Positions 5,025 to 42,666 of a stretch of 64,000 nucleotides of DNA are shown here, in pieces. Every line of letters starts with the position of its first letter. Position 1 is the stretch's first letter. Where the stretch lies: positions 1,062-65,061 of the forward strand of contig JAZROY010000009.1 in assembly GCA_045648925.1 (NCBI GenBank), written 5' to 3'. A model generated the notes under the pieces. It did not search any database. It was given only the letters and a program-made list of their open reading frames with translations, and had not been told where the DNA came from. The DNA comes from Candidatus Enterousia sp. GTDB taxonomy: Bacteria > Pseudomonadota > Alphaproteobacteria > Rs-D84. A program made the position numbers and the translations under genes.

Positions 5025-5348
5025 ATGGCAAATTACAATCCTGATACATCTGGTTTAATATCGTTGGCAGACAGACCGAACAACGAAAGAACAACGATAG
5101 CAACACAAGGTGGTATCGCTTCTGGAAAAAAACGAGCAGAAATAAAACGAATGTCTGAGATTGTTATGGGGCTTCGTCAAGAAAGCGAAGAAGACCCTGT
5201 TGCAAAATCTATAAAGTTTTTATTTTTTGATTTGACCAATCCTCTAACATCAATACCTGATACTGTAAAAGGGTTAAAATTTATAAAAGAACTCTGTGAA
5301 GAAGACCCCTCTAATCCGCCTTGCAATAAAACAGATGATGAATTGTGA
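5025..5348 (+). CDS. Phage terminase small subunit-like protein (KGG-type N-terminal motif)
   Basis: LISLADRPNNERTTIATQGGIASGKKRAEIKRMSE resembles the phage motif NLIP..ER...EIARKGGIASG..RR; AAGGA RBS before ATG 5025. Confidence 0.55.
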   Translation: MANYNPDTSGLISLADRPNNERTTIATQGGIASGKKRAEIKRMSEIVMGLRQESEEDPVAKSIKFLFFDLTNPLTSIPDTVKGLKFIKELCEEDPSNPPCNKTDDEL

Positions 5349-7089: not shown

Positions 7090-8016
7090 TTACAAATACT
7101 TTTTAAATGTTTTTTTCATTTTCAACATAGTATCAACCAACCAATTAAATTGTTCTGGCCATTGGTTTTTATCTTCAAAATCAGCCTTCCTTGCTGCGAT
7201 AATTCTGCTTCCTTTTTTATCAGGCAACTCTTTCCATTCAAATTTTAAACCTGTGTCTGCTTCTATCTCTTTTTTATGTTGCAGCAAAGAATCAAACAAA
7301 CTTTTATCATCATCAATGTACAATTCAACGTTTAATTCATTACGCTTCTGAATTCTTGAAACTGCTAAATGAGCCCCAGAAAAACCAATACTGAAATTTT
7401 TCCAGTGGTCAAAAGATGGTTTTCTGCGTCTAAAATTCTCTGCAAACACTTTGTTTTGAAACGCATAATCTTGAAAATCCACCCAAAAATCGTAACGTTT
7501 TTGTTCTGTTTCGTTGCTGGTATTATTTTTCTTCATTTCTTTGGACCAATCGTTTGGCTGTTCAACAACTTCAAATTTAACCGCTGGTTCTGATTGACCG
7601 ATTTTATACAACTTTATTTCGCAAAGAAAAAAATTAATACCTTTATCTGTGTGAGCATTAAGCCATTCGATTGCGGACCTGTGTTCTTCCCTTGCACGTT
7701 TTACAACCCATATAACAATATCAGCAGATTTACCAGATGCATATGTAATTAATTTTCCTAAATGTTCGTGATTGGTATCTTCTAACTGATTTTCAATAAT
7801 AATTTTACGGTCTGTACCAGTTTCATAGGCGTATATGTCTGCACGATAGCCACCAACTGGTGTTTCCGTTCCATTTACAGAAATATCTATGCCGACAGCA
7901 TCTGAAAGCAATGCAATGTTGTCATCACTTGCCAACCAAGGCGTAAAATCTAATGCTTCCTTTGGCCATATTTTTCTCAAATCACGAATTTCTTCCAATT
8001 TATTTAATTTCATCAT
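7090..8016 (-). CDS. DUF4268 protein with N-terminal PD-(D/E)XK (NucS-like) nuclease domain
   Basis: RADIYAYE...IIIENQLEDTNHEHLGKLITY catalytic-like pattern; DUF4268-like C-terminus. Confidence 0.8.
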   Translation of the reverse strand: MMKLNKLEEIRDLRKIWPKEALDFTPWLASDDNIALLSDAVGIDISVNGTETPVGGYRADIYAYETGTDRKIIIENQLEDTNHEHLGKLITYASGKSADIVIWVVKRAREEHRSAIEWLNAHTDKGINFFLCEIKLYKIGQSEPAVKFEVVEQPNDWSKEMKKNNTSNETEQKRYDFWVDFQDYAFQNKVFAENFRRRKPSFDHWKNFSIGFSGAHLAVSRIQKRNELNVELYIDDDKSLFDSLLQHKKEIEADTGLKFEWKELPDKKGSRIIAARKADFEDKNQWPEQFNWLVDTMLKMKKTFKKYL

Positions 8017-9097: not shown

Positions 9098-12000
9098 TTT
9101 GAACCACTAACTCCAACAATTTTTCAAGTTGTTCGTCCGATATGTTGCTATTATCTGCCAAAAGCTTTTTTACCATTCTGCGTTTCATTGGGTTGCCCCG
9201 CCAATCCGCTGGTGCTTTACTTTTTATAGCATCATAAACATTCAACGCCAAGGCAACATCTTCATCAAAGAAATCATACAATGCTTTTTTCCCATTGGTG
9301 TCAATGCCATCTATTTTATCGTTAATCGGGTTTATAACTTTCTGTGCCAAATCAGATATTTGATTCAAATAATCACGATACGCTATGTCATTTTGTTTTC
9401 TTTTCTTTACCAATTCGGTCAACAGCACTGACATCTTTTCGTAATATTTTGGATTTGTCTGTTGTTTATCGCTGATGATTCTGCGTATATTATTTTCAAT
9501 TACAGAAGATGTCGACGACCTGGCGTTTTTCTGCGACGCATCCTTTTGTGCCTGTGTAATAAAATTCAGCAAACCATTATTATTAAAATTACTCAACACT
9601 TCGCTGTCTTTTGCTAACACATACTGGTCAAACAGATTTCGCATATCTTTATCGTATTTCTTCAAATCAATATAATCACCACTGGCCATCTTAATTTCCT
9701 GACTAATGGTTTTGTAGTGTTTTACCTTTTCTTTAATTTCTTCCGCTGCTTTCTTTGAATAACCTGCCGCATGCATTTCCCCTGCCAACGCTTCGTATTT
9801 GCGTCCCAGCGATGCCACCAGCTTATATAAGTTCTGCCGTTTATGCTCGTTTTCTCTCAAAGAATGAACATTTTCGGTATCCCCGCAGAAGTAGTAGATG
9901 TATTCAGGCAAATCTCTTGGTGCTGGAACAGGTTCGCAAAGTGCTTCCACTGCTTGTAATGCAGTTTCCAAATCTTCTTTACCTTGCTCTACTTTATCTT
10001 TTAACAAACCAACAACGTCATCGGCATCAAAGCCACCGAATGCATCGCCAGTATAATCACTAACTGATTTCTGCAGTTTCTTAAACAAATCACGATAATC
10101 AACGATATAGCCGTAATCCTTGTTCAAGACCGCACCTTCTTCAGAATCATTCTCGTCTTTATCATCTAACCTATTAACACGACATACCGCCTGAAACAAC
10201 CCATGGTCTTGCATATTTTTATCAATATACAAGTATGTGGCACTGGGTGCATCAAATCCAGTCAATAACTTATCCACAACTATCAGCAGTTGCATTTGCC
10301 CTGGGTATTTCTTGAATATCTTTTTAGTTTCCTTTTCAAAATCTTCGGCTGACTTACCGTTCAGCATTTGCTGATATATCTGATATTCTTGCGAAGTAGT
10401 ATCCAATGCATTGGGTTCATACGATGTAACAACCGCACACTTTGTCAGATAACCCCTGTCTTGGAATATTTTGTAATACTGACACGCCTCAAAAATACTG
10501 CTTGCAACCAACATGGCATTACCACGACCAGATTTCAATCTTGGTTTTGTTTCAAAGTCGGTTTCAATATCAATTACAATCTTTTCCATTCTGGTCTTAG
10601 AAGACATCAGGTTCTGCATTGTTCCCCATCTTTTCTTCAATTCCATTTTGGCAGTATCGGTCAATGTGGCTGTTTTACGGTCAAACCATTCATCAATTTT
10701 CTCTTGTGATGAAATATCTTGTTCAACGGCTCTTGCTTCATACCGCAAATCCAATACAACACCATCTCTAACCGCTTGGTCATACTTATAGGTGTGAATT
10801 GGTGTCCCCCAAACCTTAAAACTGTTCTTCTTATCAATTTTCAGTAACGGTGTGCCAGTAAATCCGATAAATACTGCTGAATCACCCAGCAGTTCATTCA
10901 TCGCATCGTGCAATTTACCACTGTGCGAACGGTGGCATTCATCCACAAATACATATATCTTGCCTTTTGGCGAAAAATTAGTTGGCAGGTTTTTGCGAAG
11001 TTCGCTGATATCAATATCATATGTTGGTTCACCACTGGTATTCGTTACACGACCAAATTTATGCACCAACGAACATAACAATCTTTTGTCTTTCGTATTC
11101 AATTCCGCAAACAACTGTCTGCTGTTCGGTGCTCTCCAGATTTCTTCATCAACCCCATTGAATACCAGTTCAATTTGTTCATCCAGTTCAGTTCGGTCTG
11201 TGATAATCAAAATCCTAGCATCATGATTGTGCTCCAATATCCACTTTGATAGCCACACCATTGTCAGCGATTTACCAGACCCCTGTGTGTGCCAAATTAT
11301 TCCACCCTTATCTTCTTGTATTCTCTGCTGTGCCGCCTTTACACCGAAATATTGATTGTGGCGACAAGTTTTCTTCACGCCTGCATCAAACACAATAAAT
11401 TCATGAATAATTTCTATTATGCGGTCTTTGTTGCATAATTCGGTTATCTGACGGTCAAGCTTGCATTTGGCAACCATATCAGACGGATTTTCCTCTCTCC
11501 ATTCCAACCAATATTTTTCTGGGGTTTCTGTGGTCGCATATCGCAACCCTTCGGTATCATTACCAGCCATCAACAACTGCATTGTTGTAAAGAATGGTTG
11601 AATATATTCTGGTCTTTGATTACCAATATTTTGTTGAATTCCTTCTGATACAGATACAACACTTCGTTTCAATTCAATGATACCAACAGCAATACCGTTG
11701 ATATACAGAACGATGTCTGGTCTTTTTTCTGCTTGGCCATATACAGTAACTTCTTCGGCGATTGCAAAATTATTTTTTGTTGGTTCATCCCAATCAATCA
11801 GATAAACGGTTTTTTCTTTGCTGTCGGCAGATTCTTTTACCTTTACGCCATAACGAAGCATGGAATAAACCGCCTTGTTCTTTTCAAAGAAATTATCACC
11901 GTGTGCGATGGCACTGTTCTTTACGAATTCTTTTATTGCCTTTTGAATCAGTGTATCGGAATATTTTCCTTTCAGGTACTGTTCCAGCAATTCCGTTTCA

Positions 12001-12122
12001 ATGTTGCTGTTGTTTTCCCTGTCCTGCCAATTTCCCAGATAGTCATATTTCAGCACATTATGAAATAATTCAACCACACGGTTCTGGGTTTTTCTTTCTA
12101 ATTGACCAACTTCTATAGACAT
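9084..12122 (-). CDS. hsdR: Type I restriction endonuclease subunit R
   Basis: RPDIVLYING..IIELK nuclease motif, HTQGSGKS, VDECHRS, FTGTP, LLTGFD, QAVCRVNR. Confidence 0.95.
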   Translation of the reverse strand: MSIEVGQLERKTQNRVVELFHNVLKYDYLGNWQDRENNSNIETELLEQYLKGKYSDTLIQKAIKEFVKNSAIAHGDNFFEKNKAVYSMLRYGVKVKESADSKEKTVYLIDWDEPTKNNFAIAEEVTVYGQAEKRPDIVLYINGIAVGIIELKRSVVSVSEGIQQNIGNQRPEYIQPFFTTMQLLMAGNDTEGLRYATTETPEKYWLEWREENPSDMVAKCKLDRQITELCNKDRIIEIIHEFIVFDAGVKKTCRHNQYFGVKAAQQRIQEDKGGIIWHTQGSGKSLTMVWLSKWILEHNHDARILIITDRTELDEQIELVFNGVDEEIWRAPNSRQLFAELNTKDKRLLCSLVHKFGRVTNTSGEPTYDIDISELRKNLPTNFSPKGKIYVFVDECHRSHSGKLHDAMNELLGDSAVFIGFTGTPLLKIDKKNSFKVWGTPIHTYKYDQAVRDGVVLDLRYEARAVEQDISSQEKIDEWFDRKTATLTDTAKMELKKRWGTMQNLMSSKTRMEKIVIDIETDFETKPRLKSGRGNAMLVASSIFEACQYYKIFQDRGYLTKCAVVTSYEPNALDTTSQEYQIYQQMLNGKSAEDFEKETKKIFKKYPGQMQLLIVVDKLLTGFDAPSATYLYIDKNMQDHGLFQAVCRVNRLDDKDENDSEEGAVLNKDYGYIVDYRDLFKKLQKSVSDYTGDAFGGFDADDVVGLLKDKVEQGKEDLETALQAVEALCEPVPAPRDLPEYIYYFCGDTENVHSLRENEHKRQNLYKLVASLGRKYEALAGEMHAAGYSKKAAEEIKEKVKHYKTISQEIKMASGDYIDLKKYDKDMRNLFDQYVLAKDSEVLSNFNNNGLLNFITQAQKDASQKNARSSTSSVIENNIRRIISDKQQTNPKYYEKMSVLLTELVKKRKQNDIAYRDYLNQISDLAQKVINPINDKIDGIDTNGKKALYDFFDEDVALALNVYDAIKSKAPADWRGNPMKRRMVKKLLADNSNISDEQLEKLLELVVQNGEF

Positions 12123-12125
12123 TTT

Positions 12126-13313
12126 TTACTCCTGTGGCTTTACCAAGCGAATTCTGCCAGATAACAATTCGCCTGCAACACCCGATTTAATCTGTTTATA
12201 TTTGTTTATTTTATCATTTATTGCAGAAATTTCATCATCCATATCCGCAAGAATATCTGTAATAGCTTTTTGTTCTGTAAAATCATCTGGTAATAATAAA
12301 GAAAATTTATTTAATGCTTTCTGCTGAATGTTCGGCAATCCAGAACCAACGCGTAAAGTCATTAGTTTGTTTTCATTATATTTTAATAATTGATATAAAA
12401 AACTTTTGTTTACACAACCACGACAAATTAACGTATAACAGTGCCCACCAGCCCAAAATTTTGTTTTTATAAAATTAACAAAACCACACGAATTTCCTCC
12501 TTCGCTTATTATTATAGTATCCGCAACATTGTTATATTCATTTGTAAAACCAGATTCCGTCATCCCCCCATTATAAACGGGATACCCAGCTTCTACCATA
12601 TTTAACCTGTTTAATTGGGTTCCTTTGGTTATGTCTGCAACCTCACCTAATTTTACCTTTTTCCAAGGTTTATTAAAACCTGGCATACGACGCTTACCAG
12701 TTAACAATTCCTGCATAACACCTGTTTTAATGGCGATTTTCTTGTCCCTGACACGTTCCAGTTCCGCAATCAAATCATCAACACCCGTCAAAACATCCGC
12801 TATTTTCTGCTGTTCTGGAATAGTAGAGGGGACAGGAACAATAAAGTTTTTTATATCACCATTTGTAATTTGATTTATAGTTGCTCCCAATGTGATTTTT
12901 ATTTGTTCCTGTATATAAAAGGATTGCCATAAAAACAACAGGAATTCTGGAGAACATTTATTTGCTCTTAAAACCGTCATAAATGCACCAAAAGCCATTC
13001 CATTTCCAACGACTTTTGCAGATTTTCCTATTAATCTGGCACTGCCATTTCTAACACAAACTAATACATCACCATCGTGTGCCATTGCCCGATTAGGAAT
13101 TTCCATTTTTACAAAAACATTATCATAAAAAGACAGACGTCCTTGATTTATGTTGGATGAGCGTAAAACCAAAGTTCCAGATTCAGAAACAGATTTAGGG
13201 CTATATGTTAACCCAGTATAATTATCACAAATATCTGATAAATTCGCAACACTCCAATCGCTGGGAATTTTTCCAATATCAGTATTTTTCCAAGATGTTG
13301 TTCTGTATGCCAC
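12126..13313 (-). CDS. hsdS: Type I restriction-modification specificity subunit S
   Basis: Two TRDs with conserved P...EQQKIADVL and EQKAITDIL...ELLSGRIRL repeats. Confidence 0.93.
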   Translation of the reverse strand: MAYRTTSWKNTDIGKIPSDWSVANLSDICDNYTGLTYSPKSVSESGTLVLRSSNINQGRLSFYDNVFVKMEIPNRAMAHDGDVLVCVRNGSARLIGKSAKVVGNGMAFGAFMTVLRANKCSPEFLLFLWQSFYIQEQIKITLGATINQITNGDIKNFIVPVPSTIPEQQKIADVLTGVDDLIAELERVRDKKIAIKTGVMQELLTGKRRMPGFNKPWKKVKLGEVADITKGTQLNRLNMVEAGYPVYNGGMTESGFTNEYNNVADTIIISEGGNSCGFVNFIKTKFWAGGHCYTLICRGCVNKSFLYQLLKYNENKLMTLRVGSGLPNIQQKALNKFSLLLPDDFTEQKAITDILADMDDEISAINDKINKYKQIKSGVAGELLSGRIRLVKPQE

Positions 13314-13315
13314 GT

Positions 13316-15781
13316 TTAAAATCCCATATCTTTCAAGTGTTGCTTCACTTTTTGTTCCAAATCATTGGCCTTTGATTCTATTTCTGACAGTGTTTCAGAA
13401 TATCTGTCTGCCAATTGTTGAACCGAACTGGTCAAATTGGTTTTCTGTTTTTCAATCAAATCGTCCAGGTTGAATTCAAGTGTTGCAGACCATTTAACAT
13501 CCACAACCAAATGTTTAATTTCATCCACCGTCAAATTGACATATTTTTCCATGATTTGTTTTTCAAGCGATGCTTCTATTTTTTTGATAGAATCTTTAAC
13601 TTGCTTTTCTTGGTCTAACAAATTTGAATATCTTGTTAAACACATCTTTTCTTCTTCATCAATCTTTTCTTTTAACCGTTCCTTTAACCTTTTGTTATCA
13701 ACAGTAATTTTAATCTCTTTATCATCTTTCGACGACTCGTCATCATCATCTGTTTGTTTCTTTTTTATCACTTCTGTTAACAAACCATTGTCGCCAGATT
13801 CTTCCTCTATCATCGATATTTTCTCTGATTGAATTTCAGATAATTTTTCCTTGAAACCAATCAATTTTTGATTATCGTCATCGAAATATTCTGTTATTAC
13901 CAGTTCTGTTGGTATCAATGCCCCTTCAAGCCCATACAGTCCATCGACATCTTTTGTGACAACGCTTTTATCTTTCTTTTTGGTTTCTTTCTGCAAACGA
14001 ACCAATGAACGCCCTGCATCTTGCCAACCATATGATTTAATCAAATAACAATCATCGGCCATCGTTTCATTCCAATAGTTCCGCAATATCCCATAAATAT
14101 CATATTTTTCTACCAGTGCCGATTTATCAAACTTTGCCAACACACTTGACCCCAGTTCTTGAATCAAATCCTTTGGGTTATCATCGTTGCACAAACCCTT
14201 TAGTTTACTGTCAACTGACAAAATCCAATTGTTGAACATATCATGTATATTCTGGCGGAAATTCGTGAATTCGCTGTTGTTTGCGATTGTTTCAGCGATA
14301 TCATTAGTTTTCATCTTTGAAAAACCAGCCCTGTCACCACTAAATAAATCAGACTTCAATGTTGGACACACCGACCAATACTGGTTTAATTCATTAATAT
14401 CGGCGTCAGATATTCCACCATTAAGATGTGCATCTATGTTCTGGATAATCTCATCGCTTTGTTTCGCAATGTATCTTGGGATATTCAGGTTGAACCCATT
14501 AGCGGCAATTTCATCATCGCTGACGAACCGCGAATAATGTGGAATTTCAATTTGGTTCAAGAAAGTATCAGTGATTTTACGAATATCTTGTTCCCGCAAT
14601 CTGTTCTTCGCCCCATCTTTGATATAATCTTTTGACGCATCAATAAAGAATATACCTTTGTGATTTTCCATATTTGGCTTATCTAATACGATAATGCATG
14701 CTGGAATACCTGTGCCATAGAATAGATTAGACGGTAAACCGATAATTCCTTTGATGAAACGAATGATATTTTTCCTAATGGTTTCTTCCGCTCCACCTCT
14801 AAATAACACACCATGTGGTAAAATAACAGCACCACGACCTTTACCAGGTTTTAAGGATTTCAATATGTGCAACAAGAAAGCATAATCGCCATTCTTTTCT
14901 GGTGGAATTCCGAAACCGTCGAACCGTTCATATTGGTCGTCTGAAGGATTAAAACCATCGGTCCATGTCTTATACGAAAAAGGTGGATTAGCAACGACAT
15001 AATCAAAGGTCTTTAAACTGCCATTCTGTTCCGCAAATAATGGAACTGCCAAAGTGCTTTGTCCACCTTTTATGTCAGCAGTTGGTCTGCCGTGCATCCA
15101 CATATTCAGAATCGCCAATGATTTAGTTGTATTATCCTTTTCCTGACCGTAAATGGTTATATTCGGTGCTTCATCTGAAATCTTTAACAACAGTGACCCA
15201 CTGCCACAAGTCGGGTCATATACGGTATCCTGCGGTGATGTTGATTCATTCGCTTTGATAACCTTTGCCATTATTCTGGACACTTCTGCTGGTGTATAAA
15301 AACTGCCTTTACTTTTACCAGATTCAACAGCAAAATTGCCAATAAGATATTCGTATGCATCGCCAAGTAAATCATCACCACTGGCATTATTATTAGAAAA
15401 ATCAAGTTCCGGGTTTTCAAATATAGCAATCAAATTGGTCAAACGGTCAACCATTTCCTTGCCTTTACCCAATTTATCTTCATCATTAAAACTTACTCTA
15501 TCAATAACGCCATTCAAAGCATTTTCCGTGGCCAACTTTGACAACACAATGTCAATACCTTCACCTATATTTGGCTTGCCTTTTAATGCCACCAAATCTT
15601 TGAAACTGCCCCCCTGTGGAATCTGAACAATGTCATCTTTACCATCATATTTGTCTGTCAAATACCGAACAAAAAGCAAAACAAGAATATAATCTTTATA
15701 TTCGCTTGCATCCATACCCCCACGGAGAGCATTACACGCTTCCCACAAATGCTTATATAATTGTGATTTCTTTATAGCCAT
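13316..15781 (-). CDS. hsdM: Type I restriction-modification methyltransferase subunit M
   Basis: YDPTCGSGSLL motif I, VANPPF motif IV, LPHGVLFRG. Confidence 0.95.
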   Translation of the reverse strand: MAIKKSQLYKHLWEACNALRGGMDASEYKDYILVLLFVRYLTDKYDGKDDIVQIPQGGSFKDLVALKGKPNIGEGIDIVLSKLATENALNGVIDRVSFNDEDKLGKGKEMVDRLTNLIAIFENPELDFSNNNASGDDLLGDAYEYLIGNFAVESGKSKGSFYTPAEVSRIMAKVIKANESTSPQDTVYDPTCGSGSLLLKISDEAPNITIYGQEKDNTTKSLAILNMWMHGRPTADIKGGQSTLAVPLFAEQNGSLKTFDYVVANPPFSYKTWTDGFNPSDDQYERFDGFGIPPEKNGDYAFLLHILKSLKPGKGRGAVILPHGVLFRGGAEETIRKNIIRFIKGIIGLPSNLFYGTGIPACIIVLDKPNMENHKGIFFIDASKDYIKDGAKNRLREQDIRKITDTFLNQIEIPHYSRFVSDDEIAANGFNLNIPRYIAKQSDEIIQNIDAHLNGGISDADINELNQYWSVCPTLKSDLFSGDRAGFSKMKTNDIAETIANNSEFTNFRQNIHDMFNNWILSVDSKLKGLCNDDNPKDLIQELGSSVLAKFDKSALVEKYDIYGILRNYWNETMADDCYLIKSYGWQDAGRSLVRLQKETKKKDKSVVTKDVDGLYGLEGALIPTELVITEYFDDDNQKLIGFKEKLSEIQSEKISMIEEESGDNGLLTEVIKKKQTDDDDESSKDDKEIKITVDNKRLKERLKEKIDEEEKMCLTRYSNLLDQEKQVKDSIKKIEASLEKQIMEKYVNLTVDEIKHLVVDVKWSATLEFNLDDLIEKQKTNLTSSVQQLADRYSETLSEIESKANDLEQKVKQHLKDMGF

Positions 15782-22474: not shown

Positions 22475-22526
22475 ACGGACTGTTAATCCGTATGTCACTG
22501 GTTCGAGTCCAGTTGCCCGAGCCAAG
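22475..22526 (+). repeat. attR of element A / attL of element B (duplicate 3' two-thirds of tRNA-Asn)
   Basis: Exact 52-bp copy of 2151-2202; lacks D-arm and 5' acceptor strand. Confidence 0.95.
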
Positions 22527-22567: not shown

Positions 22568-22810
22568 ACTTAACACTTCTATGTTTCACACACCACGGTA
22601 CATCAAAAATCATCATGAAACAACCTTCTGGCTACACAATAGCTACACAGAATACGCACTATTAAGATCAATCTTGATATCTATTTTGATATCTATATGA
22701 TATCATACCACAAAGCCGCAACACACCGGAAATCTAACATTTTTTGCACTTTTTACTGGACAAGTGGAAAAATTTACGGCTTACTACGACGGCATTAAAA
22801 AGGATCGTCT

Positions 22811-38314: not shown

Positions 38315-39511
38315 CTATCCGCATATTGCGTTCGCAACGTTATTTATTGCGCGATAAGTGCTACTATCCATGATGTGCGTGTACCCTTCGGTAGTGGTTA
38401 TACGGGAATGCCCGGCCGCTTCTTTCATAGCCGCCATATTTTCGCCTATATTCGCCCCCATACTGATGAAAGAATGCCGCAGATCGTGTATTCGCATGTG
38501 CGGAAGTTTTGCGTATTCCAATGCCCATTCAAACGGTTTACGGATGTTATTTATCGGGCGACGGGTATTACCAACGCCAGGGAATACATATTTGCTGCCC
38601 AACGCCTTGGCTTCATCCAGCGCAGCCTGCAAATATGGTATAACCGCATCGCATAACTTCACATCCCTTGCACCGGTCTTACTGTCTTTCAAGTGTATCA
38701 CTTTGTGCATCAGGACGACTTCATCTACTTCTAGTCCCGTTATTTCTGATGCGCGACATCCGGTCAGCATTAACACCCGCAGCGCGTTGAATAACCGCGG
38801 ATGCATTCTGGACGCTTTTGGCCCGACATCCAGCGCATGCGATAATGCACGATATCCTTCTTGATCAAGTATCTGTGGTTTATATACCTTGTTTGCACCT
38901 TTGCGAACATATTTGCATGGATTAGTATTACGATCCACGTATTTATACATTTCGCACCAGTCCCAGAAATTTGAAAATAACGACAATGCTTTATTTGCGG
39001 TTGAAAACGATATCTTTTTCACCCATTTGGCATAGGCGTCCATTACATTTTTTTCTTCTATTTGGCGCATGTATAATTTATCAAACATGGGCCCCAGGTA
39101 TAATCGATATTCGCCCCAATTGGAATCTTGCGTTCGTGGTTTCTTGTAAACCTTGGCATATTTTTCCATGTATTGGGGAAATAGATCTTCGAATTTTTCG
39201 CCAAGATCTTCCTGTTGTTCTGTTTTTTCGCGACGCGGGTCTTGACCATTGGCAATTTGACGCCGCAAATTCCATGCCATTTCACGAATGTCTTTAATTG
39301 AATAATCGTTATATCGCCCGATATAAAGATTGCATTTCTTGTTATCGATTTTACATCCCAAGAAAAATCTGATTGCGCGCGTTGATGCGGAATACCGCAG
39401 AAACAATCCGGGGATTGTTCCATCGCTTACCTGTAAATTTACATCAGAACGCAACAAATGTATCCAAGTATCGCGAAACGGCTTCGTATAGCATTTCCAT
39501 TGCTTTTCCAT
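38315..39511 (-). CDS. int: Tyrosine integrase of element B
   Basis: TGCRASE, RIHDLRHS, AGHS, EGYTH; start moved to ATG 39511 with AAAGGAG RBS. Confidence 0.93.
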   Translation of the reverse strand: MEKQWKCYTKPFRDTWIHLLRSDVNLQVSDGTIPGLFLRYSASTRAIRFFLGCKIDNKKCNLYIGRYNDYSIKDIREMAWNLRRQIANGQDPRREKTEQQEDLGEKFEDLFPQYMEKYAKVYKKPRTQDSNWGEYRLYLGPMFDKLYMRQIEEKNVMDAYAKWVKKISFSTANKALSLFSNFWDWCEMYKYVDRNTNPCKYVRKGANKVYKPQILDQEGYRALSHALDVGPKASRMHPRLFNALRVLMLTGCRASEITGLEVDEVVLMHKVIHLKDSKTGARDVKLCDAVIPYLQAALDEAKALGSKYVFPGVGNTRRPINNIRKPFEWALEYAKLPHMRIHDLRHSFISMGANIGENMAAMKEAAGHSRITTTEGYTHIMDSSTYRAINNVANAICG

Positions 39512-39576
39512 ATGTGTAACTCCTTTGGTTGCGACTACACAGTGCAACACACAAATAAAATAGCAAGTAAAAACAA

Positions 39577-39831
39577 CTATTTTTTGCCGATTCTTTGTTG
39601 TTCCAACCATTGATTCACATCGGATTTGCGATATCGCACCATTTTGCCGATTTTAAAGTATTCCGGTCCAGTACCCAGCGCACGATATTGACTTAATGCC
39701 GAAATGGATGATTCAAGATATTGAGCCAACTGTCTTGGCGTCATAAGTTTATCTTTTTCTCCGTTTTCGTTTATAAAATAACAACTTGTATCTCTCTCCA
39801 TCCCCCAATTTTTTTTGAACTCTTGTTCCAT
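39577..39831 (-). CDS. Excisionase-like HTH of element B
   Basis: LMTPRQLAQYL...GPEYFKIGKMVRYRKSDVNQWL. Confidence 0.88.
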   Translation of the reverse strand: MEQEFKKNWGMERDTSCYFINENGEKDKLMTPRQLAQYLESSISALSQYRALGTGPEYFKIGKMVRYRKSDVNQWLEQQRIGKK

Positions 39832-40040: not shown

Positions 40041-40187
40041 AATAATAAATACAACAATATTAAATTATATGATTTTTTGTTCATCGGCGTCACTCGGTCA
40101 AAAAACGACCGTTTTTACCAGATGTAATTTTGATAGAAAAAGCATATATTTTTTTATTAAAAACTACTGTTGCTTATCCATATTATA

Positions 40188-40216
40188 TTGATTTTTTTGT
40201 TGTTTTGTGGTATAAT
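40188..40216 (+). promoter_or_regulatory. sigma70 promoter with extended -10 upstream of the toxin gene
   Basis: TTGATT-17 nt-TATAAT with TG at 40208-40209. Confidence 0.65.
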
Positions 40217-40336
40217 ACTCTTAACTTCAAAGGCACATTTTGTGCCGTTTTTTATTGCCTGCAATATCACCCACAAAATTTTGCAATTTTGCGGGGCCCG
40301 ATGTGCGGGCTTTTTTATTTAACAAAGGAGTTTTAT

Positions 40337-41407
40337 ATGGATACAAATTGGAACGGTGCATATTGGGACGAAAACGGAGTTTTACATATTGATGTTTATG
40401 CAAATCCACCGCAAATAGAACCAGAAATAAAAACAGATGAAACCGATGATGAGGTTGATGAATATTCAGAAGATGATTTTGATGAAGAATATGATGAAGA
40501 TGAAGTAGAACATACTTATGCTACCATAGATTGCGGTGGTGATTGCGGCGGATGTGTGGCTTTGATTGTTGACGACGAAGTCGTGTCTGGACCACCGTTT
40601 CACCCCAACTGTCGTTGTGTGTTAAGTATGGAAGATATAGAAAATGCACACTATCATGATTCTCATTTGCATCAAGATGTTGCAAGCGATAGAAGTGTGG
40701 ATACTCGCGATATCAAATGGTTAAAAAGGGCTTTGTTCAAACTTGGCTACTATACCCCTGATTCCAGAGCTGGAGAATCTGATAAAAAACTAAATCAATA
40801 TCCAAATCAGAGATTATTTGAAGCGATAGAAAATTTTAGAAAAGAAAATAAAATTAAAGAAAATGGTGCCGTAAAACCAGGTCATTGGACCGAAGTAAAA
40901 ATAAAAGAAGAATTAAAACAACAACAAGAACCTTATAGATATAAGGGTAATACTTTTGAAACAAAAATAGATGTTAAAGATGGTCAATACGCCGTATTTG
41001 ACGGACAAAAATTAACAGTTTATGATGGTGATAATACAATTTTATTCTGGAATGCGGTATCCGGAAAAGATGGATTTCAAACCCCCGAATATCAAGATCA
41101 AAAAAACAAAGGGCCAATACCAAAAGGTACATATGTTGCCCGACAAAATGAATTACAATATCGTTCTGATTATAATGTTATAAAACGATACACTTCTTGG
41201 CCGGGTGGCGAATCTAGTTGGGGCAATTCGCGAGTATGGTTAGAACCATCCAAAGAAACAAATACTTTTGGAAGAGACGGTTTTTCTATTCATGGCGGTG
41301 CGACACCTGGCTCTGCTGGTTGTATAGATTTAACATCAGGCATGGACGGTTTTACTGATTGGTTCAAAAACAATGGACATGATTTGATTATCAATGTAGA
41401 ATATTAA
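40337..41407 (+). CDS. Polymorphic-toxin-like protein: MuF motif + PG-binding-like + Tlde1/DUF2778-like domain
   Basis: CGGC...PPFHPNCRC; DIKWLKRALFKLGYY; KGPIPKGTY...GRDGFSIHGG...SAGCIDL; start ATG 40337 with AAGGAG RBS. Confidence 0.75.
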   Translation: MDTNWNGAYWDENGVLHIDVYANPPQIEPEIKTDETDDEVDEYSEDDFDEEYDEDEVEHTYATIDCGGDCGGCVALIVDDEVVSGPPFHPNCRCVLSMEDIENAHYHDSHLHQDVASDRSVDTRDIKWLKRALFKLGYYTPDSRAGESDKKLNQYPNQRLFEAIENFRKENKIKENGAVKPGHWTEVKIKEELKQQQEPYRYKGNTFETKIDVKDGQYAVFDGQKLTVYDGDNTILFWNAVSGKDGFQTPEYQDQKNKGPIPKGTYVARQNELQYRSDYNVIKRYTSWPGGESSWGNSRVWLEPSKETNTFGRDGFSIHGGATPGSAGCIDLTSGMDGFTDWFKNNGHDLIINVEY

Positions 41408-41409
41408 CC

Positions 41410-41751
41410 ATGAAACAAAAAATGTACCTTTTTATGTATATAATTGCCGGATTTTTATTCGGCACTTTATATACCTTTTTGTGTGATTTAGCTTACTTTA
41501 GTAGGATTGCAAAATATGAAAGCATTTGGATAAACACATATTCCCATATGAATGGGAATCAACAACAGGTTTGGATGGCAAATAATGATATTTTTTGCAT
41601 ATTTATAGTACTTGGACTATTGATGTGGATTGGTTATGTTCTTGCACCTATTTATAGGGAAAAGGTATTTTTTATTCCTTTATTGGGCGTGCCAGTATTT
41701 TTTATAATTCAATTTATATTGTGTTCGGTTTTAAGAATAATTTGTTTATAG
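41410..41751 (+). CDS. Small membrane protein, candidate immunity protein
   Basis: Three hydrophobic segments; starts 2 nt after toxin stop. Confidence 0.6.
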   Translation: MKQKMYLFMYIIAGFLFGTLYTFLCDLAYFSRIAKYESIWINTYSHMNGNQQQVWMANNDIFCIFIVLGLLMWIGYVLAPIYREKVFFIPLLGVPVFFIIQFILCSVLRIICL

Positions 41752-41874
41752 CACCACGATTCCTTGCTTTTACAACGGAAGTTATGTGGTTGTTACCTGT
41801 TTGCCATTGAACATTTTTTACACACAAGATAAATCATTGCTATTTAATGCTTAATGGGCTATTTTTGTATTGAT

Positions 41875-42300
41875 ATGACAAAGATATTCACGATTGGTTT
41901 CAGTGGTAAAACCCCAGAAGCATTTCTGGATGTGTTGAATGCGGCACGCATAAGTTGTGTTTGGGATATCCGCCAATGGCGGACCAGCACCTATGTCCCA
42001 TATTATAACGGTGATAATTTAGCAAAAGTTTTGAGCAATCGCTATGAATATCATCCAGAATTTGCGCCAACTTCTGATATTTTAGTGGCGTATAAAGATA
42101 AAAAAATTACATGGGCAGAATACGAAAAAATGTATCGCGAATTATTGCAAAAACGCAATCCGTTGCAAAAGTGCGATATATCAAAACTTGATAGGATATG
42201 TTTGTTGTGTACAGAAAAATCTGCAATACAATGTCATCGCAGATTAGCCGCCGAATATATTACAGCACAATTACCAGATATTGAAATTGTGCATTTATAA
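41875..42300 (+). CDS. DUF488 family protein
   Basis: IFTIGFSGK...WDIR...CLLCTEKS...CHRRL. Confidence 0.85.
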   Translation: MTKIFTIGFSGKTPEAFLDVLNAARISCVWDIRQWRTSTYVPYYNGDNLAKVLSNRYEYHPEFAPTSDILVAYKDKKITWAEYEKMYRELLQKRNPLQKCDISKLDRICLLCTEKSAIQCHRRLAAEYITAQLPDIEIVHL

Positions 42301-42349: not shown

Positions 42350-42438
42350 GATACATCTAGCTACACGACGACACAATTTTTTTCCTACACATTGGCTACA
42401 CAATAAAAATTTGCTACACGGTGGATACACGGCTACAC
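42350..42438 (+). repeat. G(C/A)TACA(C/T) arm-type repeat array, right arm of element B
   Basis: At least 6 copies including 42360, 42395, 42413, 42424, 42432; same motif at 22631 and 22642. Confidence 0.78.
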
Positions 42439-42509: not shown

Positions 42510-42529
42510 CTGTTAATCCGTATGTCACT
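42510..42529 (+). repeat. att core at right end of element B
   Basis: 20-bp identity to tRNA-Asn 2156-2175, spanning the anticodon loop. Confidence 0.85.
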
Positions 42530-42645: not shown

Positions 42646-42666
42646 ACGGATCAATCCGTATGTCAC
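42646..42666 (+). repeat. Degenerate att core (remnant)
   Basis: ACGGA-tc-AATCCGTATGTCAC (14-bp match at 42653-42666, anticodon loop altered); GCTACAC arm at 42780. Confidence 0.65.

Follow-up and report, generated by a model that had tools for sequence, protein, structure and literature searches.

A probable cell-wall toxin-immunity pair of Candidatus Enterousia and the leader it has in common with a T7-like particle cluster

A 64,000-nucleotide stretch of DNA from Candidatus Enterousia sp. (GenBank assembly GCA_045648925.1, contig JAZROY010000009.1, positions 1,062 to 65,061 of the forward strand), referred to here as the window, carries a two-gene cassette consisting of a putative cell-wall toxin gene, P0001, and a candidate immunity gene, P0002. 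P0001 is an intact open reading frame (ORF) of 356 amino acids (aa) at 40337-41407 on the forward strand. Its product is built, in this order, from a conserved N-terminal motif (N-motif), an acidic linker, a Cys/His knuckle, a PG_binding_1 bundle and a Tlde1-type domain. The gene is preceded by a leader with a promoter and two terminator-like hairpins. Coordinates are those of the window, except where a locus from a relative (prefix L) is named. The features of the cassette are as follows.

40188-40216 (+): promoter, TTGATT, 17-nt spacer and TG-extended TATAAT (consensus scan)
40232-40252 (+): leader hairpin 1, GGCACA...TGTGCC followed by a T-run, intrinsic-terminator-like (terminator scan, fold)
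40257-40320 (+): leader hairpin 2 with T-run, long form, stem GCCTGCA/TGCGGGC around a nested insert of ~40 nt (fold)
40311-40330 (+): conserved leader end with the ribosome-binding site (RBS), TTTTTTATTTAACAAAGGAG, one copy in the window
40325-40330 (+): RBS AAGGAG, 6 nt 5' of the P0001 ATG
40337-40411 (+): P0001 residues 1-25, conserved N-motif, M..xW.GA.WNENGELV.DIYA.PP
40412-40510 (+): P0001 residues 26-58, acidic disordered linker, 20 D/E and 1 K/R, predicted local distance difference test (pLDDT) <50
40511-40627 (+): P0001 residues 59-97, Cys/His knuckle, remnant of the MuF C-terminus (alignment, hhalign)
40694-40921 (+): P0001 residues 120-195, PG_binding_1-type three-helix domain (phmmer relatives, AlphaFold)
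40934-41407 (+): P0001 residues 200-356 and stop, Tlde1-type L,D-transpeptidase-fold domain (PF10908, PF03734)
41410-41751 (+): P0002, candidate immunity gene, 113 aa, starting 2 nt past the P0001 stop

The ATG start of P0001 is common to all homologues in the alignment. A TTG at 40130 was considered as a start and rejected, because the leader would then be translated and every homologue begins at the ATG. Neither a signal peptide nor a hydrophobic segment was predicted anywhere in the protein, in line with the original prediction, which had been made from the letters of the sequence. That prediction had also described an acidic N-terminus, and the charge count of residues 26-58 agrees with it. 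The acidic linker differs in length between homologues and is absent from several, as seen from alignment gaps. The N-motif ahead of it is strongly conserved, with W5, W10, G14, E15, L16, V17 and P25 invariant or nearly so in 34 homologues; AlphaFold confidence is low over these 25 residues.

The knuckle is a CxxC...PFHPNCRC zinc knuckle, in which C66, C70, C73, H89, C92 and C94 are invariant in the same 34 homologues and the PFHPNCRC motif occupies residues 87-94. The Pfam profile Phage_Mu_F (PF04233) scores 13.1 bits against P0001 (cut-off 29.6, E 0.17) over profile positions 91-111 of 112 only, a match that is not significant and proves nothing alone. Sister proteins with a bona fide MuF domain pass the same cut-off (P0116 with 31.9 bits, a 201-aa protein with 39.9 bits). 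Furthermore, when mini-MuF N-termini were compared with full-MuF N-termini by hhalign, the CxxC...HPNCxC knuckle aligned over 26 columns (probability 80%, E 1.4e-5). Since sisters with the same Tlde1 end pass as MuF proteins and the knuckle aligns in the profile-profile comparison, "mini-MuF" describes P0001 fairly: about 30 MuF residues survive, and the remainder is unrelated to MuF. The earlier claim that only the terminal MuF signature is present thus describes the protein well, the knuckle alone being alignable to full MuF.

The PG-binding-like helices that had been suspected behind the knuckle were recovered as three helices at residues 123-195 in the AlphaFold model, which is confident for the PG-binding and Tlde1 parts only. 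Pfam PG_binding_1 stays below threshold on P0001 itself (E 0.12). An exhaustive phmmer search against 1.84 billion representatives matched ~100 proteins, mainly over residues ~110-197, and PF01471 was above threshold in nine of the ten relatives checked.

The catalytic half passes the cut-offs of both Tlde1_dom (PF10908; 39.2 bits against 30.1, residues 240-344) and YkuD (PF03734; 28.9 bits against 23.4). Its HGG (319-321) and SAGC (326-329) motifs, from which an L,D-transpeptidase fold had already been proposed, contain H319 (41291-41293) and C329 (41321-41323), both invariant in the 34 homologues. A profile of the family matches 7UMA, the Tlde1a of Salmonella, with E 8.4e-5, and the catalytic His and Cys fall into register. 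A fold search with the AlphaFold model, whose catalytic domain has a pLDDT of ~90 except for a low-confidence loop at ~275-290, returned 7UMA, 7UO8 and 7UO3 as top PDB matches, then Bdellovibrio Bd1075 and YkuD; the viral fold matches include a phage endolysin. The modelled structure thus corresponds to the altered L,D-transpeptidase (YkuD) fold. Gly-Cys is preceded by Ala in P0001 and by other residues (N, I, Q or E) among its relatives, not by the His of the (S/T)HGC motif. The known activity of Tlde1a is the removal or exchange of the terminal D-Ala in tetrapeptide stems (PMC9638812).

P0002 is the tightly linked gene with three transmembrane spans (3-TM) that had been noticed behind the toxin. 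Its hydrophobic spans cover residues 5-27, 59-81 and 86-113, and the conserved loop 28-58 between the first two is placed in the periplasm by the positive-inside rule, in keeping with a predicted inner-membrane protein. Pfam, NCBIfam and PHROGs gave no family for P0002, and a homologue search returned four close relatives only. The immunity role is therefore deduced from where the gene lies, from the way it co-varies with the enzyme and from its predicted topology. Metatranscriptome contigs of 99-100% identity span parts of P0001 and P0002, which weakly suggests transcription in vivo.

P0001 belongs to a family in which the C-terminal half is exchanged. Over residues 1-195, identity to proteins ending in GH24 or GH108 reaches 89-94%, and the DNA similarity between P0001 and a GH24 sister gene stops at 40918, equivalent to residue ~194, which marks the swap junction. 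The C-termini seen after the constant half are Tlde1, a GH24 muramidase, a GH108 hydrolase and a serum-amyloid-A-like (SAA-like) domain, the last in more distant family members. Besides the mini-MuF proteins, there are full-MuF relatives with a recognisable MuF domain ahead of Tlde1, GH24 or GH108. At the site adjacent to frr, the variants differ between strains. The mini-MuF N-terminus forms only about a dozen clusters at 50% identity, and the named sources of these clusters are all Alphaproteobacteria or Candidatus Enterousia metagenome-assembled genomes (MAGs) from animal guts. Judging from these clusters, the family appears to be confined to Rs-D84/Enterousia gut Alphaproteobacteria.

The partner gene changes with the enzyme, as judged from one to three loci per enzyme type. 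The Tlde1 type is followed by a membrane protein of ~102-113 aa homologous to P0002 (L001, L007, L015), the homologue in L007 having 26% identity and two clear hydrophobic spans. The GH24 type has a 111-aa lipoprotein downstream (L014), and a stand-alone GH24 gene in L007 is followed by a related lipoprotein. The GH108 type adjoins a convergent gene for a 124-aa signal-peptide protein (L096). All three partner classes are envelope-exposed, and the partner ORFs measure 102-124 aa. The arrangement is thus that of MuF toxins, in which a small ORF lies downstream of a toxin whose C-terminal domain is exchanged. The swapping, together with enzyme-specific, envelope-exposed partners, reads as the signature of a polymorphic toxin-immunity system and not of a lysis cassette. 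L007 also contains two extra genes for small polytopic membrane proteins (11490-12429 of that locus), between its toxin-immunity pair and its pair of GH24 and lipoprotein genes; these may be orphan immunity genes.

At least six gene families have the conserved leader, which occurs once in the window. Its 20-nt end, TTTTTTATTTAACAAAGGAG, was found at 77 loci in a scan with one genome per species, of which 39, from Enterousia and related alphaproteobacterial MAGs, were examined. Genes under the full leader encode mini-MuF toxins, full-MuF toxins, MuF-GH108, a 201-aa MuF protein, stand-alone GH108 and GH24 proteins, and a 216-aa family. An alignment of 24 leaders, taken from different gene families, shows that the promoter is conserved. 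For hairpin 2, the RNA fold has -35 kcal/mol and z = -3.4, with a terminator-like site scanned at 40293-40313. The stem sequences of the hairpins vary among relatives and their pairing is retained. Counted per sequence, 35 of 42 toxin-type leaders contain two terminator-like hairpins, as do 39 of the 43 distinct leaders of the particle cluster described below. RNAalifold on the MAFFT leader alignment gave no hairpins, the stems being out of register. Rfam at gathering thresholds found only two tRNAs in the window; the leader thus corresponds to none of its curated families.

An insert of ~40 nt (ATATCACCCACAAAATTTTGCAATTTTGCGGGG) lies in the loop of hairpin 2 at 40257-40296 of the window and in L019, L055, L056, L063, L071, L083 and L090. 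Its presence or absence is independent of the downstream gene family, and for this reason the leader seems to recombine as a module. Two of the other families under the leader are worth describing. The 201-aa family (L017, L021, L046, L079, L081, L082, L092) combines an NNPGNL-containing N-terminal domain with a C-terminal PF04233 domain, and may be the genuine minor head protein of the particle. A cytoplasmic family of ~190-216 aa (L019, L062, L063, L090, and L001 at 11471-12040 on the reverse strand), with the sequence MKxSNIIxSDITCMKEKFCIAGFD..., has no Pfam match and the same leader. In L001 its gene adjoins the toxin locus, and one metatranscriptome contig links the leader to a gene of this family.

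The same leader precedes a cluster of phage-like particle genes. An extension of the L014 contig (L094) contains a T7-like particle cluster between birA and dnaB, in which birA is followed by a Hydrolase_2-like gene and genes for a 78-aa membrane protein, a scaffold (PF05396), a Lys/Ala-rich 105-aa protein and the capsid (PF19821), then by tail tube and nozzle-like genes and an N-terminal fragment of TerL before dnaB. An nhmmer model built solely from the 24 toxin-type leaders matched the first intergenic region of this cluster over its full length (E 0.003). We then scanned 80 metagenome loci around capsid homologues (at least 80% identity), kept from 289 stretches encoding a relative. The model matched 47 of these 80 loci, many of which are too short to contain the leader site; all 47 matches are nearly full-length and have the strand of the capsid gene, at a distance of ~2 kb upstream. 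The best match reached E 8e-9 in 571 kb, and there were no other full-length hits. Toxin and particle cluster thus solidly have one leader in common, with the same promoter and tandem terminators. The cluster was seen in relatives only (L094 and the fetched capsid loci).

The 105-aa protein between the scaffold and capsid genes (L094, 12634-12951) consists almost wholly of AKKPAAKK-type repeats and could be a basic internal head protein or a DNA-condensing protein. Its charge is opposite to that of the acidic linker of the toxin.

The best explanation overall, which we hold to be moderately probable, is that P0001 and P0002 are the effector-immunity pair of a lineage-specific polymorphic cell-wall toxin family. 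A toxin-immunity function as such is likely, as far as sequence comparison can tell. A constant carrier half (N-motif, linker, MuF knuckle and PG_binding_1) would bear an exchangeable enzyme half, which by homology would here be a Tlde1-type Cys/His L,D-carboxypeptidase or D-amino-acid-exchanging transpeptidase that modifies tetrapeptide stems. As the presumed substrate is the tetrapeptide stem of peptidoglycan, the enzyme would have to act in a periplasm, and the periplasmic loop of P0002 would neutralise it. Transcription would start at the strong extended -10 promoter and then proceed past the two tandem intrinsic terminators; because these lie downstream of the promoter, expression probably needs antitermination. 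The shared leader supports a co-regulation of the toxin with particle production. The toxin may then be packed into particles through its MuF remnant and be freed in the periplasm of a recipient, harming cells without the matching immunity gene. Of all steps, this delivery via particle heads, for which MuF ancestry and the common leader speak, has the weakest support; it is possible yet doubtful. It is also conceivable, but rather unlikely, that the whole amounts to a killer gene-transfer agent (GTA), in which a domesticated T7-like particle carries MuF-knuckle wall enzymes that are made together with it through a single antitermination switch; kin with the matching immunity gene would survive or accept the transfer, and non-kin would suffer wall damage. 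The cassette itself has been captured as cargo of a tRNA-Asn island, which makes it mobile and leaves the island outside the mechanism.

Several observations weigh against this interpretation. Apart from the SAA-like domain, the C-termini identified are all wall enzymes, and no nuclease or other cytoplasmic toxin is among them; such a payload also fits an endolysin-like or virion-lysin role. P0001 has SAGC where Tlde1a and L,D-transpeptidases have SHGC, and because of this its activity may differ. For immunity against a peptidoglycan enzyme, a protein that spans the membrane several times is unusual; Tldi1 is soluble and periplasmic. The metatranscriptome contigs can include DNA. As for the link with the particle, the likeness of the leaders indicates a shared control architecture, not shared timing. 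The cluster lies near the toxin locus in one synteny (L014/L094) and not in L099/L100, so proximity was not used as evidence. To our knowledge, T7-type phages do not use MuF proteins.

In the window, the cassette is located in the second of two tandem islands at the tRNA-Asn gene (2125-2200). Measured from one attachment site (att) to the next, island A has 20,324 bp and island B 20,030 bp, together ~40.4 kb within 2125-42666, and each has its own integrase. Island B covers 22527-42529, and its boundaries and the genes beside the cassette are listed here.

22475-22526 (+): 52-bp exact repeat of the 3' part of tRNA-Asn, shared end of island A (its right) and island B (its left)
38315-39831 (-): tyrosine integrase of island B (38315-39610) and HTH_17 excisionase (39577-39831), divergent from the toxin gene (Pfam)
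41854-42300 (+): DUF488 gene, N3a subclade (Pfam)
42360-42438 (+): four GCTACAC repeats, probable arm-type sites of the island B integrase (repeat scan)
42510-42529 (+): att core at the right boundary of island B, 20 bp identical to the anticodon-arm region of tRNA-Asn (blastn-short against 2125-2200)

After int and xis, island B continues with the toxin gene, its partner, the DUF488 gene and the arm and att sites. GCTACAC has 10 copies in the window against 2.8 expected, with clusters at 22631-22648 and 42360-42438, and TATTCTATG repeats lie beside the integrase of island A. Island A carries a type I restriction-modification (RM) system and a SocA/Panacea protein. The cargo of island B comprises T5orf172, PIN, a helicase-methylase-endonuclease system with DUF4391, a Schlafen-like protein and a KAP NTPase in addition to int and xis, and is thus mostly made of RM and other defence genes. 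Pfam and PHROGs revealed no capsid, portal, terminase or tail families in either island, and neither replication nor packaging genes were recognised in the content of island B. The pair therefore does sit, as had been claimed, on a capsid-less element, bounded by att sites and bearing an integrase. A degenerate att between xis and the toxin (~39912) was considered, and alignment gave no support for it; the toxin is thus inside island B and not on a separate att-flanked segment. A third att remnant, an exact 14-bp copy of 3' tRNA-Asn sequence (42653-42666), lies within a remnant region of ~280 bp that is conserved in L012 and L014. The DUF488 gene trails the pair in every copy from the source species (L011, L012, L013), not in other lineages, and it matches phage families of unknown function (phrog_2450).

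This setting could suggest that the toxin belongs to the island. The original prediction had read it as a weapon or entry aid of the element, loaded into the heads of a helper phage by the minimal MuF tag, so that island B would be a phage satellite. The position of the pair between xis and the arm and att sites, the lack of capsid genes on both islands and their tandem arrangement at ~20.3 and 20.0 kb agree with such a reading. However, the link between toxin and island is not conserved, which makes the reading weak. An identical toxin protein occurs in L012 with HigBA and a type I RM system at its left and an att remnant upstream, and with no integrase within 10 kb. In L014, the GH24 sister toxin lies just outside the att of the equivalent island, and a Fic gene and a gene for a 152-aa protein hold its place inside. 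In other lineages, the locus is found among the housekeeping genes frr/uppS/bamA, rpoZ/miaB or ahpC, without an integrase or phage gene within 10 kb. Since the linkage is broken in all these cases, the cassette does not depend on the island; rather, the island picked up an independent cassette. Neither constant linkage nor genes to hijack replication or packaging were found on the side of the island, whose cargo is defence, and through its leader the toxin is connected with particle genes of the chromosome instead of an incoming phage. We therefore keep from the original interpretation the Tlde1-type wall enzyme with a cognate partner, and regard its use as an island weapon through a helper phage as very improbable. 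No phage structural gene was found within 10 kb of the locus in the window or in L001-L016, and tblastn against phage records gave two weak hits only. The better of the two, MT836786, was set aside; it looks like a bacterial fragment (DnaE, housekeeping genes) and not like a phage.

Two other explanations concern the route and the role of the enzyme. P0001 might be exported as a substrate of a type VI or type IV secretion system (T6SS, T4SS), or be a bacteriocin released by lysis with the N-motif as an uptake signal. Wall toxins are indeed exported by a T4SS in the case of the Xanthomonas X-Tfe proteins, and the strong conservation of the N-terminal 25 residues is otherwise unexplained. Tlde1 is moreover a T6SS effector family (PMC9638812). 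Yet T6SS and T4SS genes are absent from the window and from within 10 kb of any relative, P0001 has no match to T6SS adaptor, PAAR or MIX families in Pfam and NCBIfam, and T4SS signals are normally C-terminal, whereas the constant part here is N-terminal. The small size of the published Enterousia genomes, 0.75-1.0 Mb (PMC12306168), also speaks against such a system, and MuF ancestry and the particle leader point elsewhere. We consider export by these routes quite unlikely. The remaining explanation is that of a lysis or autolysis enzyme, endolysin-like and co-expressed with the particle for its release, with P0002 as a holin- or antiholin-like protein. An N-terminal PG_binding_1 followed by a C-terminal enzyme is typical of modular Gram-negative endolysins, the leader is common with the particle cluster, P0002 resembles class I holins in being small and 3-TM, and both the wall-enzyme payloads and the phage endolysin among the fold matches would suit this role. 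Against it, GH24 is paired with a lipoprotein and GH108 with a signal-peptide protein, a dependence on enzyme class that suits inhibitors and not holins. The particle cluster already has Hydrolase_2-like and 78-aa membrane-protein genes at its start, and the MuF knuckle would be without obvious use in an endolysin. Strain-level swapping of enzymes behind a conserved carrier is a hallmark of polymorphic toxins, and the extra membrane genes and the lysozyme-lipoprotein pair of L007 resemble toxin/immunity arrays. An endolysin with its holin thus seems unlikely, and the effector-immunity pair remains our preferred explanation.

Among known systems, this effector-immunity pair can be compared with the MuF toxins, which have been described as prophage-encoded, beside portal and terminase genes, mainly in Firmicutes, and with nucleases, peptidases, ADP-ribosyltransferases and RelA-like domains as the main payloads (PMC3482391, PMC5576092). 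P0001 resembles them in its swappable C-terminal toxin behind a MuF-type module, in the downstream ORF of less than 150 aa that is presumed to confer immunity, and in the lack of a signal peptide. Their delivery through phage heads is likewise predicted and has not been demonstrated in the literature (PMC12226406). The differences are substantial. P0001 retains only the last ~30 MuF residues and does not pass the MuF threshold, its gene is outside any head-morphogenesis module or prophage, and the payloads of its family are peptidoglycan enzymes and the SAA-like domain. The hosts are Alphaproteobacteria, and the candidate vehicle is a chromosomal T7-like cluster.

With the Tlde1/Tldi1 pair of Salmonella (Tlde1a, 7UMA; PMC9638812), P0001 and P0002 share the PF10908 domain, the altered fold, the same His-Cys spacing and an adjacent immunity gene, and periplasmic action on tetrapeptide stems is expected for P0001 as well. 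In contrast to Tlde1, P0001 has no T6SS context in the window or within 10 kb on either side of its relatives, a carrier half of 200 residues is fused in front, and SAGC replaces SHGC. P0002 is unrelated to the soluble periplasmic Tldi1.

Modular Gram-negative endolysins and virion-associated lysins also combine PG_binding_1 with a catalytic domain, and wall enzymes of the T7 gp16 type are ejected from the particle. The likeness to P0001 extends to a PG-binding bundle followed by a swappable enzyme, cytoplasmic synthesis and a presumed co-regulation with particle genes. The enzyme-specific envelope partner, the MuF knuckle and the N-motif set P0001 apart, as does the position of its gene, which stands alone, away from the particle genes. 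The dispersal of co-regulated genes is reminiscent of RcGTA, a host-owned phage-like particle whose accessory genes are scattered in the chromosome under common control. Here, however, the particle is T7-like and control would be exerted by a promoter and tandem-terminator leader. We know of no GTA for which a polymorphic toxin has been described as an accessory gene.

Two side observations from relatives can be added. In L099/L100, from pig-gut relatives, a region next to ackA (9209-14612) contains a bAvd-like gene (PF22296), an Mtd_N protein (PF18454) and an 810-aa protein, which hint at a diversity-generating retroelement or a receptor-binding cassette of the phage-fibre type. In L047 (~7480-7540) and L052 (~5270-5330), (CA)n tracts lie 5' of genes for Cys-rich secreted proteins.

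New here is a family of putative MuF toxins that is detached from phages and has kept the knuckle only, with wall enzymes as payloads, membrane proteins or lipoproteins for immunity, and a leader that ties it to a domesticated particle. The published descriptions of Enterousia covered here mention no toxins, phages or secretion systems. Even on a conservative reading, the locus adds a Tlde1-type effector outside a T6SS context, with an immunity protein embedded in the membrane. With its 30-residue remnant, wall-enzyme (and SAA-like) payload, partners and particle leader, the family is a stripped-down test case for the delivery of MuF toxins, and the tandem-terminator leader gives a new handle for listing genes co-expressed with the particle. 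If the killer agent holds true, the toxin cassette could, in the source genome, also move between strains on the tRNA-Asn island. Should the link between toxin and particle be borne out, it would follow that domesticated phage particles can deliver kin-discriminating proteins, and this would help to explain how bacteria of less than 1 Mb, without a recognised contact-dependent weapon, compete in the gut.

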